The position numbers and the translations under genes are program-made. This document shows positions 1 to 4,534 of a stretch of DNA of 4,534 nucleotides, one piece after another. This DNA comes from a virus (lineage: Duplodnaviria > Heunggongvirae > Uroviricota > Caudoviricetes), in IMG/VR virus record IMGVR_UViG_2778261058_000008, positions 1-4,534 of that record; one strand, 5' to 3'. The notes beneath the pieces are model-generated. The model was given only the letters and a program-made list of their open reading frames with translations, made no database searches and was not told the origin of the DNA. Position 1 is the stretch's first letter, and the number at the start of each line of letters is the position of its first letter.

Positions 1-2
1 GT

Positions 3-30
3 TTGCGGGAAAAGGAGAGTTAAGTAGAAT
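3..30 (+). promoter_or_regulatory. Candidate sigma70 promoter for the hok mRNA
   Basis: -35-like TTGCGG (3-8), 16-nt spacer, -10 TAGAAT (25-30). Predicted start near 37-39 sits just upstream of the conserved 5' hairpin and gives a ~415-nt transcript ending at the 432-453 terminator, the size expected for a full-length hok mRNA. Window edge truncates the upstream context. Confidence 0.35.
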
Positions 31-43
31 TGCTGCGGGTGCT

Positions 44-60
44 TGAGGCTATCTGCCTCA
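44..60 (+). promoter_or_regulatory. 5' stem-loop of the hok mRNA (tac-like element)
   Basis: TGAGGC (44-49) pairs with GCCTCA (55-60) around a 5-nt loop. The surrounding GCTTGAGGCTATCTGCCTCA closely matches the 5' end of the plasmid R1 hok mRNA as I recall it (GCUUGAGGCUUUCUGCCUCA). Confidence 0.4.
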
Positions 61-94
61 GGCATGAACACCAAAAGGCAGATAGAGAAAAGCC

Positions 95-173
95 CCAGTT
101 AACATTACGCGTCCTGCAAGACGCTTAACATTAATCTGAGGCCCAATCTATGTCTCACAAATGTAGGTTAGCC
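95..173 (-). ncRNA. Candidate Sok-like antisense RNA (type I antitoxin); boundaries approximate
   Basis: Placed by analogy to hok/sok: antisense to the mok-like initiation region. Minus strand has weak promoter candidates (TTGCCT-17-TAACCT, or a TAAGAG -10 that is conserved with my recollection of R1) and a hairpin GCGTC-loop-GACGC (complement of 109-124) followed by a U-rich stretch. Start and end cannot be fixed from sequence alone. Confidence 0.3.
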
Positions 174-362
174 TCTTACGTGCCGAAAGGCAAGGAGAAG
201 CAGGCTATGAAGCAGCAAAAGGCGATGTTAATCGCCCTGATCGTCATCTGTTTAACCGTCATAGTGACGGCACTGGTAACGAGGAAAGACCTCTGCGAGG
301 TACGAATCCGAACCGGCCAGACGGAGGTCGCTGTCTTCGTAGACTACGAATCTAGAGAGTAA
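150..362 (+). CDS. mok-equivalent reading frame, here in frame with hok (70 codons, would give an N-terminally extended Hok)
   Basis: ATG at 150 with GAGG (138-141) 8 nt upstream. Flanking CTATGTCT and AGCCTCTTAC match the mok start region of R1 as I recall it. In R1 mok is offset +1 from hok; here the mok-ATG to hok-ATG distance is 57 nt, so the frames coincide. Confidence 0.3.
   Translation: MSHKCRLASYVPKGKEKQAMKQQKAMLIALIVICLTVIVTALVTRKDLCEVRIRTGQTEVAVFVDYESRE
207..362 (+). CDS. hokD: Hok/Gef-family type I toxin, 51 aa (small membrane peptide)
   Basis: Translation MKQQKAMLIALIVICLTVIVTALVTRKDLCEVRIRTGQTEVAVFVDYESRE: single hydrophobic helix, conserved LTRK..LCE.R motif of Hok proteins, near-identical over most of its length to HokD/RelF of E. 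coli K-12 as I recall it. SD AAGGAG (192-197) 9 nt before the ATG. Gene symbol is by similarity and position, not verified. Confidence 0.85.
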   Translation: MKQQKAMLIALIVICLTVIVTALVTRKDLCEVRIRTGQTEVAVFVDYESRE

Positions 363-371
363 GAGAGACCA

Positions 372-393
372 GGCGGGAGAGTAATCTCCCGCC
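372..393 (+). promoter_or_regulatory. 3' stem-loop of the hok mRNA (fbi-like element)
   Basis: 9-bp stem GGCGGGAGA (372-380) / TCTCCCGCC (385-393) closed by a GUAA (GNRA) tetraloop, 10 nt after the hok stop. Assignment as the fold-back element is by analogy to hok mRNAs. Confidence 0.4.
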
Positions 394-431
394 ACCTCTG
401 ATGTGTCGGCATCCTCAACGCACCCGCGCTT

Positions 432-453
432 AACCCGCTTCGGCGGGTTTTTT
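432..453 (+). terminator. Intrinsic terminator ending the hok transcript
   Basis: Stem AACCCGC / GCGGGTT with a UUCG tetraloop (439-442), followed by six T (448-453). Confidence 0.7.
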
Positions 454-528
454 GTTTTACGTATTCTGGTTTACAATCCACAGGCCAGCCTGAACAACTG
501 GCACCTGCTGCGCCAGCAGAGAAAACAG

Positions 529-801
529 ATGGCGCACAATACCAAATTACACAATTCTGATACCGTTCGTGCCAGCAGGCACGGGCGGCGCTCTCACGCA
601 TTCAAATATGACTGGTATCAGCACGATCCCTGCACTGAAGAACAGGCCGAATGGCTGATTCAGAACTACCGCAGACGTGGGTATGAGTTTAAGAAAGCCC
701 TCAACCTCGATTATCGTCACTGGATAATCTACGTCAGACTCCCTTATTCCGAACGCCCACCGCGTCCGTCCCGCACATTCCAGCAACGCATCTGGAGGTA
801 A
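529..801 (+). CDS. Hypothetical small phage protein, 90 aa, at the position Rem occupies in Qin
   Basis: ATG at 529 (weak SD GAGAAA); stop TAA 799-801 lies 1 nt before the GTG of the next gene, so the two look coupled. The longer track ORF from 403 would start inside the hok terminator and is not favoured. No recognisable motif; function unknown. Confidence 0.5.
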   Translation: MAHNTKLHNSDTVRASRHGRRSHAFKYDWYQHDPCTEEQAEWLIQNYRRRGYEFKKALNLDYRHWIIYVRLPYSERPPRPSRTFQQRIWR

Positions 802-802
802 C

Positions 803-1852
803 GTGCGGGTATTGCTTCGACCTGTTCCGGTACCGGAACTCGGGCTGGTGGTCCTTAAGCCTGGTCGTGAATCCATGCAGGTATTTCATAACCCTCGAGT
901 GCTGGTGGAACCGGAACCGAAAAGCATGCGCGGTCTGCCGTCCGGAGTCGTTCCTGCCATTCGCCAGCCGCTGGCGGAAGACAAAACATTGCTGCCGTTT
1001 TTCAGTAACGAACGGGTGATTCGTGCTGCTGGCGGCGCTGGTGCACTTTCTGACTGGCTGTTGCGTCATGTCAAATCCTGCCAGTGGCCTCATGGCGACT
1101 ATCACCACAGCGAAACCGTCATACATCGTTACGGTACCGGCGCGATGGTGTTGTGCTGGCACTGCGACAACCAGCTGCGTGACCAGACTTCCGAATCACT
1201 CGGGCAACTTGCTCATCAAAACCTGTCAGCATGGATGACTGACGTCATCCGTCACGCAATGAATGGCACACAGGAGCGGGAATTATCGCTGGCTGAATTA
1301 TCCTGGTGGGCGGTCTGCAATCAGGTAGCGGACGCATTACCGGAGGCAGTATTACGTCGTTCGCTGGGATTGCGTGCGGAAAAAATCCGCTCAATGTACC
1401 GTGAAAGCGACATCGTACCGGGAGAGCAGACCGCCACCAGCATACTGAAGCAGCGCACAAAAAATCTTGCGCCGTTGCCTCACGTCCACCAGCAACAGAA
1501 CGCACCACAGGAAAAGACGGTGGTCAGCATTGCCGTAGATCCGGAGTCTCCGGAATCTTTCATGAAGCGACCTAAACGTCGCCGTTGGGTAAATGAGAAA
1601 TACACGCGCTGGGTGAAGACACAGCCGTGTGCGTGTTGTGGCAAGCCAGCCGACGATCCCCATCACCTGATTGGTCATGGTCAGGGAGGGATGGGAACAA
1701 AAGCCCACGATATTTTCACGCTACCGCTGTGCCGGGAACATCACAACGAGCTTCATGCGGATCCGCTGGCGTTCGAAGAAAAGCATGGTTCCCAGGTTGA
1801 TTTAATTTTTCGTTTTCTTGATCACGCCTTTGCAACTGGCGTGCTTGGGTAA
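803..1852 (+). CDS. ydfU: DUF968-family phage protein, 349 aa, with a C-terminal Cys/His-rich nuclease-like motif
   Basis: GTG start at 803 preceded by GGAGG (794-798). Same length and gene position as YdfU of Qin in my recollection. C-terminus reads CACCGKPADDPHHLIGHG...LPLCREHHNELH (about 1630-1760), resembling a zinc-binding HNH-like signature. Confidence 0.8.
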   Translation: MRVLLRPVPVPELGLVVLKPGRESMQVFHNPRVLVEPEPKSMRGLPSGVVPAIRQPLAEDKTLLPFFSNERVIRAAGGAGALSDWLLRHVKSCQWPHGDYHHSETVIHRYGTGAMVLCWHCDNQLRDQTSESLGQLAHQNLSAWMTDVIRHAMNGTQERELSLAELSWWAVCNQVADALPEAVLRRSLGLRAEKIRSMYRESDIVPGEQTATSILKQRTKNLAPLPHVHQQQNAPQEKTVVSIAVDPESPESFMKRPKRRRWVNEKYTRWVKTQPCACCGKPADDPHHLIGHGQGGMGTKAHDIFTLPLCREHHNELHADPLAFEEKHGSQVDLIFRFLDHAFATGVLG

Positions 1853-1864
1853 AAGAGGTGACTG

Positions 1865-2224
1865 ATGCTCATAGATTTGGTTTTACCTTACCCGCCGACG
1901 GTGAACACTTACTGGCGACGCCGTGGCAGCACATATTTTATCTCGGAGGAGGGAAAGCGTTATCGTCGGGCTGTGGCGCTTATTGTTCGCCAGCAGCGGC
2001 TGAAATTAAGCCTGTCCGGAAGGCTGGCGATAAAGGTGATTGCAGAGCCACCGGATAAGCGTCGTCGCGACCTGGACAATATCCTGAAAGCACCACTGGA
2101 TGCGTTGACGCATGCGGGGTTGCTTATCGACGACGAGCAGTTTGATGAAATCAATATTGTGCGCGGTCAGGTCGTTCCTGGTGGTCGGCTGGGGATAAAA
2201 ATCACAGAGCTGGAGTGCGCATGA
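1865..2224 (+). CDS. rusA: RusA-family Holliday junction resolvase, 119 aa
   Basis: SD GAGGTG (1855-1860) then ATG 1865. Translation carries the RusA core PDKRRRDLDN...LIDDEQ; the three Asp at 69, 71 and 90 line up with the catalytic D70/D72/D91 of E. coli RusA. Confidence 0.9.
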   Translation: MLIDLVLPYPPTVNTYWRRRGSTYFISEEGKRYRRAVALIVRQQRLKLSLSGRLAIKVIAEPPDKRRRDLDNILKAPLDALTHAGLLIDDEQFDEINIVRGQVVPGGRLGIKITELECA

Positions 2225-2910
2225 ATAACCAGTATTTACAGTTTGTTCGTGAGCAGCTCATTATCGCCACCGCCGATTTGAGTGGGGCAACAAAAGGTCA
2301 GCTTGAAGCCTGGCAGGAGAATGCCATGTTCGATACAGGGCGTTACAGGCGTAAAAAAATCCGGTACCGCGATGAAGTGACCGGAAAAATGATCACGCGG
2401 GATAATCCACCAATCCCGGGGAAACAATCGCTGGCGAAGGGGACGTCAATTCCTCTGGTAAGTCAGGTTGAGTTTTCGACATCATCATGGCGACGGGCAG
2501 TTCTGTCTCTTGAAGAACATCATAAAACCTGGTTGTTGTGGTGTTACAGCGGGAGTATTTGCTGGGAGTATCAGGTCACCATAACCCGCTGGGCATGGGA
2601 AGAGTTTAAGGCTCATTCTGGCAACAGGAAAATTGCAGAGAAAACACGGGAGCGCCTGAAAAAATTAATCTGGCTGGCGGCACAGGATGTGAAGAGTGAG
2701 CTAGCTGGGCGTGAAACTTATGAATATCAGGAACTGGCATTACTGGCGGGAGTAACAACAAAAAACTGGTCCAAAACATTTACTGGTCACTGGGTTGCAA
2801 TGAAACACATTTTCCACCGGCTGGATAGTGAGGCTTTATTGTTTGTGATGAGAACACGCTCAGAACAAAAGACGGCATTTTCAAAGCAAAGTGTTGCAAA
2901 AGTAGATTAA
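2221..2910 (+). CDS. Late-gene antiterminator Q-like protein (Q82/Qin-type), 229 aa
   Basis: ATG 2221 overlaps the rusA stop (ATGA at 2221-2224) with GGAG 5 nt upstream; an in-frame GTG at 2215 is an alternative start. Gene lies directly after rusA, and its 3' end overlaps a promoter that is followed about 70 nt later by a terminator, the geometry of Q / PR' / tR'. Family call rests on context and general resemblance, not a search. Confidence 0.6.
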   Translation: MNNQYLQFVREQLIIATADLSGATKGQLEAWQENAMFDTGRYRRKKIRYRDEVTGKMITRDNPPIPGKQSLAKGTSIPLVSQVEFSTSSWRRAVLSLEEHHKTWLLWCYSGSICWEYQVTITRWAWEEFKAHSGNRKIAEKTRERLKKLIWLAAQDVKSELAGRETYEYQELALLAGVTTKNWSKTFTGHWVAMKHIFHRLDSEALLFVMRTRSEQKTAFSKQSVAKVD

Positions 2911-2922
2911 AAGGCATATATT
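2894..2922 (+). promoter_or_regulatory. PR'-like late promoter overlapping the 3' end of the Q-like gene
   Basis: -35 TTGCAA (2894-2899), 17-bp spacer, -10 TATATT (2917-2922); predicted start near 2929-2930. Confidence 0.45.
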
Positions 2923-2928
2923 TCGTGC

Positions 2929-2999
2929 AAATCTGATATTTTGCCGATTTTGTACTCGATGGCAAAGTAAGCAAATCCCGCCGCCGAGCGGGTTTTTTT
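2929..2999 (+). ncRNA. Short terminated late-promoter transcript, about 70 nt (analogous to lambda 6S RNA / StxS)
   Basis: Runs from the predicted PR'-like start to the T-tract of the tR'-like terminator; no ORF with an SD inside. Confidence 0.3.
2977..2999 (+). terminator. tR'-like intrinsic terminator
   Basis: Stem CCCGC (2977-2981) / GCGGG (2988-2992), 6-nt loop, seven T (2993-2999). Confidence 0.75.
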
Positions 3000-3014
3000 G
3001 TTGGCTTAACAGGT

Positions 3015-3020
3015 TATAAT
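3015..3020 (+). promoter_or_regulatory. Consensus -10 hexamer TATAAT; possible moron promoter for the MazF-like gene
   Basis: Perfect TATAAT 84 nt upstream of the ATG at 3104, but only a T-rich, poor -35 that overlaps the terminator T-tract. Confidence 0.3.
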
Positions 3021-3103
3021 GTATAGTGCGAAACTGCCTGTTCAGCAGAATCATTTTGTTTGTAGTGGAGTTCACAAGTCGTCATTATCAGGCAAAGAGA
3101 TTT

Positions 3104-3505
3104 ATGGTATTAAAGTATCAGCCGTCTGTTCGTTCTGTTTTAATGTGTGATTTTCGGGGAATGGTTGTTCCGGAAATAGTCAAGGTCAGGCCAGTGGTGG
3201 TCGTGTCCAGAAACAGGCACAACAATCAATTGGTAACAGTGGTACCAATAAGCACTACTGAACCGCTCCCTCGCAGAGATTGCCATCATGAGTTATCAGA
3301 AAACCCCATACCTGGTAATGAGCATATTACTTGCTGGGTAAAATGTGACATGTTGATGACGGTTTCATTGAGCCGACTGGATCGCATAAAAACCAGAACC
3401 TGGGAGGGACGAAATTATATTGTTCCTATGATTGCGGAAGATGAGTTTGAGAATATTAAACGGGCGGTATTGCACGGGATAGGGATGGCTTATCTGTATC
3501 GATAA
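3104..3505 (+). CDS. MazF/PemK/Kid-fold (CcdB/MazF superfamily) toxin-like protein, 133 aa, with no adjacent antitoxin ORF
   Basis: ATG 3104 with SD AAAGAGA (3094-3100). Translation SVLMCDFRGMVVPEIVKVRPVVVVSRNRHNNQLVTVVPISTTEP matches the MazF pattern (IWVDFDP...HRPAVVLS...CVPCTT) with the same 11-residue spacing between DF and RP; C-terminal region also aligns loosely. Could alternatively belong to an uncharacterised phage late-region family such as the YbcV/YdfO (DUF1398) type; I cannot tell them apart without a search. Confidence 0.6.
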   Translation: MVLKYQPSVRSVLMCDFRGMVVPEIVKVRPVVVVSRNRHNNQLVTVVPISTTEPLPRRDCHHELSENPIPGNEHITCWVKCDMLMTVSLSRLDRIKTRTWEGRNYIVPMIAEDEFENIKRAVLHGIGMAYLYR

Positions 3506-3529
3506 TCGAAAACGATTATCGAATTCGAT
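3499..3529. repeat. Palindrome cluster overlapping the stop codon of the MazF-like gene
   Basis: Perfect 10-bp inverted repeat TCGATAATCG (3499-3508) / CGATTATCGA (3513-3522) with an AAAA spacer, overlapping a 12-bp perfect palindrome ATCGAATTCGAT (3518-3529). Stop codon TAA is at 3503-3505. Confidence 0.7.
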
Positions 3530-3540
3530 ATGAATTTATA

Positions 3541-3569
3541 TTGACACACATAGTGTGTTGGCTGATACT
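3541..3569 (+). promoter_or_regulatory. Strong sigma70 promoter candidate with a palindrome in the spacer
   Basis: Consensus -35 TTGACA (3541-3546), 17-bp spacer, -10 GATACT (3564-3569), AT-rich tract upstream (3530-3540). Spacer holds ACACA-TAG-TGTGT (3546-3558), which looks like an operator. Confidence 0.5.
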
Positions 3570-3575
3570 GTCGCT

Positions 3576-3690
3576 GTACCCTGATGGGACTTGTGAGACT
3601 TCCGAACAGGAAGCCAGGAGTAGCGATGAGGTGATGACAAGCCTGCTGCCCCTGTGTAAAAGGCACCTTAATGGTGCCTTTGTCGTTTTT
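3576..3690 (+). ncRNA. Candidate small RNA, about 115 nt (about 148 nt if it reads to the second terminator at 3723)
   Basis: Defined by the promoter at 3541-3569 and the hairpin plus T-tract at 3659-3690. Only trivial ORFs inside: a 2-codon ORF after AGGAG (3616-3620) and a 25-codon frame from ATG 3634 that runs through the terminator stem and has no properly spaced SD. Confidence 0.3.
3659..3690 (+). terminator. Intrinsic terminator candidate
   Basis: Stem AAGGCACC / GGTGCCTT around loop TTAAT, then GTCG and five T (3686-3690). Confidence 0.5.
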
Positions 3691-3700
3691 ATCAAAAGAT

Positions 3701-3723
3701 CCCGCCACTGAGCGGGTTTTTTT
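3701..3723 (+). terminator. Intrinsic terminator; near-identical second copy of the tR'-like terminator
   Basis: Stem CCCGC (3701-3705) / GCGGG (3712-3716), 6-nt loop, seven T (3717-3723). ATCCCGCC...GAGCGGGTTTTTTTGT is shared with 2974-3002; only two loop bases differ. Confidence 0.75.
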
Positions 3724-3845
3724 GTGTCCTAAAAACGGCACAGGACGTTAAACGCGCTGGTGGTTGCGAATACGGGTCTTTCAGCTTGCTGGCTTTTTCG
3801 ACAAGAGTTATTGGTATGTCACGTTAACCAGAAAAGGAAAAAGAC

Positions 3846-4043
3846 ATGCTAAAACAGCAGGATATGACCGAAACTGCCAGAGTAGTGTTTAATGAATTGA
3901 GCGTCACCGAACCGGCGACCGTCGGGGAAATTGCGCAGAACACGTACCTTTCACGCGAACGCTGCCAGTTAATACTGACTCAGCTTGTTATGGCAGGTCT
4001 GGCAGATTATCAGTTCGGTTGTTACAGACGCCTTTCGCAGTGA
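3846..4043 (+). CDS. Small 65-aa protein, probable winged-helix/HTH DNA-binding protein
   Basis: SD AAGGA (3834-3838) 7 nt before ATG 3846. Segment ATVGEIAQNTYLSRERCQLILTQLVMAGL has helix-turn-helix character. Function is inferred, not established. Confidence 0.6.
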   Translation: MLKQQDMTETARVVFNELSVTEPATVGEIAQNTYLSRERCQLILTQLVMAGLADYQFGCYRRLSQ

Positions 4044-4193
4044 AGGTTTTTTTATTTGTGGTAATGGGCGGCTGGTGGGTGTTAGCGGCACCTGCCAGCC
4101 ATCTGCTCATGCGTTGGGGTCACAAGCAAACCTCAGGCCCATCTGCTTTGCGCAAAAGCGGTATGAGCCTATCAGAGAAGTGCTTATTGATCT

Positions 4194-4534
4194 ATGGCTA
4201 ATACTGTAAAAATATCCAGTTGTGAGTTAATCAACGCTGATTGCCTGGAATTTATCCAGACCTTACCGGAAAACTCTGTCGATCTGATAGTCACAGACCC
4301 GCCATACTTTAAAGTGAAGCCCGAGGGCTGGGATAACCAGTGGAAGGGCGACGATGATTACCTGAAATGGCTGGATCAGTGTCTGGCGCAATTCTGGCGG
4401 GTACTGAAACCTGCCGGAAGTCTCTACCTGTTCTGTGGTCATCGCCTGGCATCTGACACCGAAATCATGATGCGTCAGCGCTTTAATGTGCTGAACCACA
4501 TTATCTGGGCGAAGCCGTCCGGACGCTGGAACGG
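4194..4534 (+). CDS. N6-adenine DNA methyltransferase (N6_N4 MTase type), 5' part only; runs off the window
   Basis: Hand translation from ATG 4194 gives MANTVKISSCELINADCLEFIQTLPENSVDLIVTDPPYF... with the catalytic DPPY motif in the SVDLI-x-x-DPPY context seen in beta-class adenine methylases such as E. coli YhdJ. In-frame TGA directly upstream (4188-4190) fixes the start. No stop before the window end, which is why it is missing from the ORF track. Confidence 0.85.
   Translation, partial: MANTVKISSCELINADCLEFIQTLPENSVDLIVTDPPYFKVKPEGWDNQWKGDDDYLKWLDQCLAQFWRVLKPAGSLYLFCGHRLASDTEIMMRQRFNVLNHIIWAKPSGRWN

Follow-up and report, generated by a model that had tools for sequence, protein, structure and literature searches.

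A putative captured Ner-type operator at the junction of a MazF-fold toxin gene and a conserved structured RNA in a lambdoid Escherichia coli prophage

Several described systems come close to the locus analyzed here. In type III toxin–antitoxin modules (ToxIN, CptIN and TenpIN; also AvcID), a protein toxin is linked to a non-coding RNA and no protein antitoxin is encoded; the RNA of ToxIN, CptIN and TenpIN is a tandem repeat array that lies upstream of the toxin gene, behind a terminator. Type II modules such as MazEF and PemIK combine a MazF-fold toxin with a MazE/PemI-type gene, and type I systems with a trans-encoded sRNA, such as RalR/RalA and TisB/IstR-1, place an sRNA with its own promoter beside the toxin gene. 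The operators of the Ner proteins of phages Mu and D108 (Ner/Nlp family, HTH_35) are elements of a different kind, in which short half-sites are repeated as inverted repeats; Ner presumably binds these repeats at the same position as in the Mu-like prophages described below. The window, by which we mean the whole stretch of 4,534 nucleotides that was analyzed (IMG/VR record IMGVR_UViG_2778261058_000008, positions 1 to 4,534), carries a cluster of palindromes at the stop codon of a MazF-like gene, which an earlier note had proposed to be an operator for a dimeric regulator of the adjoining sRNA-like unit, an RNA hairpin at the end of the toxin mRNA, or a recombination site.

Gene order, read from open reading frames, profile matches and a site scan, identifies the window as the late-regulatory region of a lambdoid E. 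coli prophage. It starts with a hok/sok module (37–362), in which a Hok-like ORF occupies 150–362 and the sok match reaches 121.7 bits (gathering score 59), continues with a DUF968 gene and rusA, and then reaches the Q antiterminator gene (2215–2910), with a promoter-like site at 2894–2922. Two near-identical tR′-like terminators, found on the plus strand by a terminator scan that called five terminator-like sites in 2800–4300, bracket a cassette consisting of the toxin gene and its partner RNA. The left copy lies at 2970–3000 (called hairpin 2977–2998) and the right copy at 3695–3722 (called at 3701–3722), and the latter is followed by a gene for a 65-aa HTH protein and a DNA methyltransferase gene. 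The prophage carries two unrelated toxin modules inside 3.5 kb, hok/sok and the MazF-like cassette. The leader from the predicted late promoter to tR′ (2927–2998) gave a weak match to IsrK, at 19.5 bits far under the gathering score of 50.

The flanks of the cassette (Q, terminator, HTH gene and methylase gene) are common among phiP27- and Stx-type phages, and similarity to these phages picks up again at the right terminator. The block of HTH and methylase genes has matches in approximately 2,400 E. coli genomes, most of which start only at the terminator, at window position 3701. Of 5,426 complete E. coli genomes, only 24 carry the cassette itself (3003–3700), at 98–100% identity; E. coli SE11 (NC_011415.1) is a carrier strain. 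The cassette had no match in the phage collection searched, and its only match in the plasmid collection was a weak one (69.5%) inside the toxin gene of a Neisseria gonorrhoeae record. The slot between the terminators after Q looks like a recombination-prone site for accessory genes (morons). In phiP27, the slot is occupied by a GIY-YIG nuclease gene, and antitoxin modules with a SocA/Panacea domain occur in the same slot at two further loci, one adjoining a toxin–RNA pair (L110, 438–1310) and one adjoining a copy of the RNA without a toxin gene (L006, 1567–2400).

Homologues of the toxin with 65–79% identity are present in Enterobacter, Klebsiella, Xenorhabdus and Arsenophonus, where they stand directly behind phage antiterminator genes belonging to three different Pfam families, and an Atlantibacter homologue is situated outside any phage. 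The neighbors of the toxin gene change from genus to genus and include Q genes, an integrase, a LysR gene and an MFS gene. The cassette also moves between phages, Mu-like phages included, since one copy (L088) has GemA, Mor and gp27 upstream. In every enterobacterial allele compared, a TTGAC(A/T) promoter and then the conserved RNA come after the toxin gene.

The toxin gene (3104–3505, plus strand) encodes an orphan MazF-fold protein of 133 aa, YifN-like and of the PemK family. The protein matches Pfam PF02452 with 52.7 bits (cut-off 23.1, E = 5.6e-14), and no other Pfam family, ToxN included, was reported for it. Its AlphaFold2 model (pLDDT 89.3, pTM 0.84) was compared with the PDB, and all of the 50 matches listed are MazF-family toxins (MazF, MoxT, YdcE and similar; TM 0.68/0.81). 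The invariant residues Arg29, in a KxRP motif, and Ser50 align with Arg29 and Thr52 of E. coli MazF, which we take to be catalytic. By its profile, its predicted SH3-like barrel fold and its Arg and Thr/Ser equivalents, the protein belongs to the MazF/PemK family. An adjacent protein antitoxin gene was sought in the window and in homologous loci; none was found, nor was any other protein partner conserved, and in the window only ~100 bp without an ORF lie upstream. Hundreds of genomes nonetheless label the toxin a "type II PemK/MazF family toxin" despite the lack of a protein antitoxin, and neither PADLOC nor NCBIfam returned a match for it. In E. coli K-12, the yifN pseudogene (L123, NC_000913.3 3959815–3960040, minus strand) is followed by a consensus promoter (TTGACA-17-GATAAT) and then by a hairpin RNA of ~75 nt with a terminator. 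This hairpin RNA, perhaps a degenerate relative of the partner RNA, is matched only weakly (15.8 bits, E = 0.023) by the covariance model described below.

Downstream of the toxin gene, a promoter with a 10/12 match to the sigma-70 consensus (TTGACA-17 nt-GATACT, 3541–3569, plus strand; GATACT at 3564–3569) precedes a structured RNA of 114 nt (3576–3689, plus strand), which starts seven bases past the −10 hexamer. The TTGAC motif and a −10-like hexamer occupy the same place in nine enterobacterial alleles. The RNA is composed, in order, of a P1 hairpin, the single-stranded segment ACUUGUGAGAC, a P2 hairpin, a P3 hairpin with the apical loop GAUGACAA, a terminator hairpin (3659–3681) and the tail CUUUGUC. 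RNAalifold, applied to a MAFFT alignment of 36 sequences (alignment A2), gave 24 base pairs, 18 of them with compensatory changes. Standard pairs fill 93% of the pair cells in this alignment, compared with 35–56% when the partners are slid, and double changes number 114, compared with 20–29 in the slid controls; none of 500 shuffles reached the observed values. The invariant bases are mostly single-stranded, namely ACUUGUGAGAC, the apical loop GAUGACAA and the tail CUUUGUC. Across phyla, the 3′ tail past the terminator stem (CCUUUGUC) hardly varies, an unusual degree of constancy for a plain U-tract. Covariation for a pseudoknot between the GAUGACAA loop and either the CUUUGUC tail or ACUUGU was mixed when judged by eye.

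The sRNA-like unit that the earlier note had suspected is real and far more conserved than could be told from the window. Of 80 more distant loci, at 43–58% protein identity, 75 (~94%) have a single match to covariance model R1, on the strand of the toxin gene and 3′ of it. These loci come from Pseudomonas, Pasteurellaceae, Neisseria, Burkholderiales, Caulobacteraceae, a Geobacteraceae metagenome-assembled genome, Anaerolineales and Cytophagales, and loci with both toxin and RNA span the Gammaproteobacteria, Betaproteobacteria and Alphaproteobacteria as well as the last three of these sources. The pairing of toxin and RNA is widespread and statistically solid. Rfam 15 gave no match at E ≤ 1 over 3576–3722 and no gathering-level match on the RNA in ten diverse loci, and no description of the RNA or of its pairing with the toxin was found in the literature on YifN, PemK with a structured RNA, new type III systems and orphan MazF; both the partner RNA and the toxin–RNA pairing appear to be undescribed. 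A Pasteurellaceae genome has sRNA-Xcc1 (RF02221, 68 bits; L013, 3631–3719) at a distance of 125 nt downstream from the toxin-linked RNA.

Copies of the RNA that lack the toxin gene are found in E. coli prophages (L003, 2577–2689; L004, 2498–2611; L005, 2498–2611; L006, 2490–2599). In L003, a clean deletion has removed a 494-bp segment matching window positions 3055–3548, which comprises the toxin gene, the palindromes and the −35 hexamer and is edged on both sides by TAGTG microhomology. In L004 and L005, the RNA stands behind the late promoter of another Q type, without the TTGAC promoter, and in L005 the near-invariant loop A is mutated (GAUGGCAAG). The arrangement in L004 and L005 suggested that the RNA might be a pR′/6S-type late leader belonging to another Q type; this idea was rejected, since non-phage chromosomal contexts and 75 of the 80 distant loci have the RNA behind the toxin gene. 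The RNA-only copies could be decaying remnants or phage-borne antitoxin decoys. Loci with the toxin alone are rare, and this asymmetry between RNA-only and toxin-only loci is the one predicted for an antitoxin.

A small peptide encoded in the RNA (MTSLLPLC...) was dismissed, as it is not conserved (MTSQPLL* in Atlantibacter) and the changes preserve the helices. An antisense mechanism like that of type I systems was also rejected: cognate RNA–toxin leader pairs are no better than non-cognate ones (mean duplex energy with the toxin 5′ region, −54.5 versus −51.5 kcal/mol, with ranks evenly spread), and a complement of the RNA loop is present in only a few toxin 5′ leaders, notably those of Enterobacter and Klebsiella. 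Since leader complementarity is not conserved, antisense is unlikely, and direct binding of RNA to protein is the best remaining model. The structured RNA would then neutralize the MazF-fold RNase by binding it, and the invariant ACA-containing loop may serve as a pseudo-substrate. Indirect support for such binding comes from the co-occurrence of RNA and toxin gene in 75 of 80 loci and from the invariant single-stranded motifs, among them this loop. Judged from sequence comparison, the module most likely works as a toxin–antitoxin pair in which the RNA binds the toxin directly.

The palindromes lie where the two parts of this module meet. Window positions 3497–3531 read TATCGATAATCGAAAACGATTATCGAATTCGATAT. 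As the earlier note had stated, an inverted repeat with perfect 10-bp arms around an AAAA spacer (TCGATAATCG/CGATTATCGA; arms at 3499–3508 and 3513–3522, 100% complementary and 4 nt apart) covers the stop codon of the toxin ORF, the TAA at 3503–3505 lying within the left arm. The right arm is overlapped by a second perfect palindrome, TATCGAATTCGATA (3517–3530), which is 14 bp long rather than the 12 bp originally given; the block ends 11 nt before TTGACA. Together, the repeats form a block of TTATCGA-type half-sites (3499–3530), which spans −77 to −46 relative to the RNA promoter. The whole window has six TATCGA hexamers, where 1.4 are expected, and four of them fall inside 34 bp. Among 1000 dinucleotide-preserving shuffles of the window, an equally dense cluster arose in 0.7% (P about 0.007), and an inverted repeat whose arms match perfectly over 10 bp or more, no further than 10 apart, arose in 5% (P about 0.05). 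The block is real and moderately non-random, and what chiefly supports it is how it compares with other sequences rather than these statistics.

Two candidate identities were rejected. The outer hexamers GATAAT...ATTATC resemble the Fur consensus, but they are spaced by 8 and not by 7. No evidence was found for the recombination site that had been proposed; neither an integron attC site nor another recombination site agrees with the block, which has no core-site motif and no supporting context.

The palindromes might instead act in RNA, as two 3′ stem-loops that stabilize the toxin transcript against 3′ exonucleases, or that pause or insulate transcription before the RNA promoter. As RNA, the block is predicted to fold into two hairpins (−16.9 kcal/mol, z = −3.35), as well as which none of 200 shuffles folds, and the first of these spans the toxin stop codon; to this extent, the hairpin at the mRNA end envisaged in the earlier note is possible. 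However, AT-rich stems with ATTCGATATGAA behind them leave the block without the GC-rich stem and U-tract of an intrinsic terminator, and it is not among the five terminator-like sites called. Nothing equivalent exists in the other alleles, in two of which the promoter starts 1–2 nt past the stop codon, and in the Mu-like phages described below the same sequence would fall in a 5′ leader and not at a 3′ end. A role in RNA is unlikely when both sides are weighed.

Eight other enterobacterial alleles keep the toxin gene, the TTGAC promoter and the RNA, and the palindromes are absent from all eight, which was part of what the earlier note had named as speaking against them. Between the stop codon and TTGAC, the nine alleles have 1, 1, 2, 4, 22, 32, 35, 42 and 57 nt, without sequence relation among these spacers, and the E. 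coli allele is the only one of the nine with inverted repeat arms of at least 6. The block is an addition confined to the E. coli allele, placed in a variable spacer between two conserved parts, and its absence from homologous alleles indicates that it is not an integral part of the module. It is identical in all 24 cassette-bearing E. coli genomes; elsewhere in the cassette there are 13–16 differences per 720 nt (2% divergence), and because only about 1.4 changes would be expected in the block, its identity is not significant.

These observations bring forward a second explanation, in which the block is a functionless passenger in a tolerant spacer, either a fragment of DNA from a Mu-like phage or a repeat that arose locally. 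The lack of relation among the nine spacers in sequence and length, the completeness of the module without the block, the uninformative conservation inside E. coli and the travels of the cassette among phages, Mu-like ones included, all agree with it. Its difficulty lies in the boundaries and the differences of the match set out below: the stretch shared with Mu-like prophages is exactly the half-site array with no flanks, whereas random capture is not expected to respect such boundaries, and the only differences lie in the repeat centre and lengthen the arms from 9 to 10 bp. A neutral passenger is somewhat doubtful on this evidence, with an appreciable chance of being right.

A sensitive search with window positions 3486–3548 as the query found matches outside the cassette in 16 other genomes. 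The best of these cover 3499–3530 at 29 of 32 positions, and the weaker ones have 79–87% identity. All four matches inspected lie in Mu-like prophages of E. coli, at four different chromosomal insertion sites. In each of the four, the array (in L104, 2501–2532) is situated between a gene for a CI-type HTH repressor and a divergent gene for an 89-aa protein, which is followed by a Mu-type transposase gene. A profile search assigned the 89-aa protein (WP_077781711.1) to Pfam HTH_35, the Ner/Nlp family, at 1.1e-19. In the Mu-like copies (L104–L108), the array consists of three units at 13-bp spacing; it begins immediately past the −10 hexamer of the promoter TTGACC-17-TATCTT, covers the predicted start of the early transcript and ends 15 nt before the start codon of the ner-like gene. 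Half-sites thus recur in these copies where a Ner-type operator would have them, behind the early promoter and ahead of the ner gene. A separate repeat, CGTACTTTTG, overlaps the Mu-like early promoter, and these repeats probably serve the CI-type repressor.

The cassette and the Mu-like array differ at three positions only (AAC versus TTT), all at the centre of a 24-bp inverted repeat, where they extend the arms of the cassette version. Confinement of the differences to the repeat centre is the pattern expected of a protein site. The likeness goes no further than the array, with nothing shared in the flanks, and an exact-pattern scan of 2.9 million IMG/VR viral contigs recovered the block in only two contexts, the cassette and the Mu-like array. 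A Klebsiella Mu-like phage retains CGATAA-N10-TTATCG with a different spacer and centre. Variation also occurs among the Mu-like copies: relative to L104 (2499–2533), L105 has both outer bases of the 24-bp repeat changed symmetrically (TCGATAATC/GATTATCGA to CCGATAATC/GATTATCGG), as would fit a symmetric site or a hairpin, and L107 has just one of these two changes.

Taken with its position in the Mu-like prophages, the block is probably a captured Ner-type operator. Ner would be the likely binder by analogy with Mu and D108, whose Ner sites we take to lie at the same position, and it is this position and this analogy that lead us to assign the array to Ner and not to the CI-type repressor; the half-site TTATCGA differs in sequence from the Mu and D108 sites. 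In the cassette, a dimer of the Ner/Nlp type may bind the block and modulate transcription at the toxin/RNA junction, by changing either the strength of the RNA promoter or read-through from the toxin gene. This reading, in which a Ner-type operator block adjoins a toxin neutralized by its RNA, is tentatively the best explanation, and we give it a probability of roughly 0.45. Against it, there is no Ner-family gene in the window, as no HTH_35 gene was found among the window proteins tested. The block lies upstream of the −35 hexamer here, whereas the Mu-like array overlaps the predicted transcript start, so that its effect on regulation may differ between the two. The other alleles, moreover, work without the block, which may be neutral.

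The part of the original proposal that invoked an operator for a dimeric regulator is borne out to the extent that the block matches an array preceding a Ner-family gene; the two binders put forward at the time fare badly. That the 65-aa HTH protein, or the MazF-like toxin itself, uses the block as its operator is suggested by proximity only, the HTH gene lying 320 bp downstream, and by the fact that type II toxins are often co-repressors. A sequence comparison revealed no similarity between the 65-aa HTH protein and the Ner-like protein, and the former was discarded as a Ner homologue. The region with the HTH and methylase genes occurs without the block in those ~2,400 E. coli genomes and in phiP27-type phages, as against 24 genomes with the palindromes. 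A scan of the window detected no half-site near the HTH gene or its promoter, nor upstream of the toxin gene, and the toxin homologues of other genera have no such site. Control by either protein is very improbable, the least probable account that we weighed.

A bolder version of the preferred reading, that of a Ner-type operator beside an RNA-neutralized toxin, would make the locus an undescribed class of RNA-antitoxin system that has captured a Mu-like Ner operator. Ner from an infecting or induced Mu-like phage would shut off or perturb the antitoxin RNA and so free the toxin, and the palindromes would be the phage-sensing input to an abortive-infection switch. We regard this as highly speculative, with a slim chance of being right. 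More generally, the site after Q in lambdoid prophages, the RNA-only copies and the apparently borrowed phage operator point to phage–phage or phage–host conflict. The palindromes by themselves are a minor, lineage-specific regulatory feature; they matter for where they sit, at the point where the two parts of a seemingly overlooked module join. If the RNA is an antitoxin, the tolerance of "orphan" toxins would be explained.

Compared with the Ner operators of Mu and D108, the block has the same construction, and in the Mu-like copies the array also lies between the early promoter and a ner-like gene, opposite a CI-type repressor gene; it departs from them in the window, which has no ner gene and in which the array stands upstream of the promoter and not over the transcript start. 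The toxin shares with MazEF and PemIK its fold and its equivalents of the catalytic Arg and Thr/Ser residues, but it has neither an adjacent MazE/PemI-type gene nor a palindromic operator upstream. The RNA, with its own promoter beside the toxin gene, recalls type I systems with trans-encoded sRNAs, from which the locus is set apart by the lack of conserved complementarity between the RNA and the toxin mRNA and by a toxin that is not a small membrane peptide. The closest likeness is to type III systems: a protein toxin is linked to a non-coding RNA with no protein antitoxin, the toxin has a MazF/Kid-like fold, which ToxN also resembles, the module is found in prophages and as an isolated two-part island, and the RNA-only copies recall phage-borne antitoxin mimics. 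The RNA here, however, is a single structured molecule downstream of the toxin gene with its own TTGACA-17-GATACT promoter, and no direct repeats were found. The pair would thus be type III-like in function, as far as sequence allows this to be judged, but it falls outside the structural definition of type III because its RNA is not a repeat array and is not upstream of the toxin; if the RNA is an antitoxin, RNA-antitoxin systems would reach the classical MazF fold and a non-repeat RNA.
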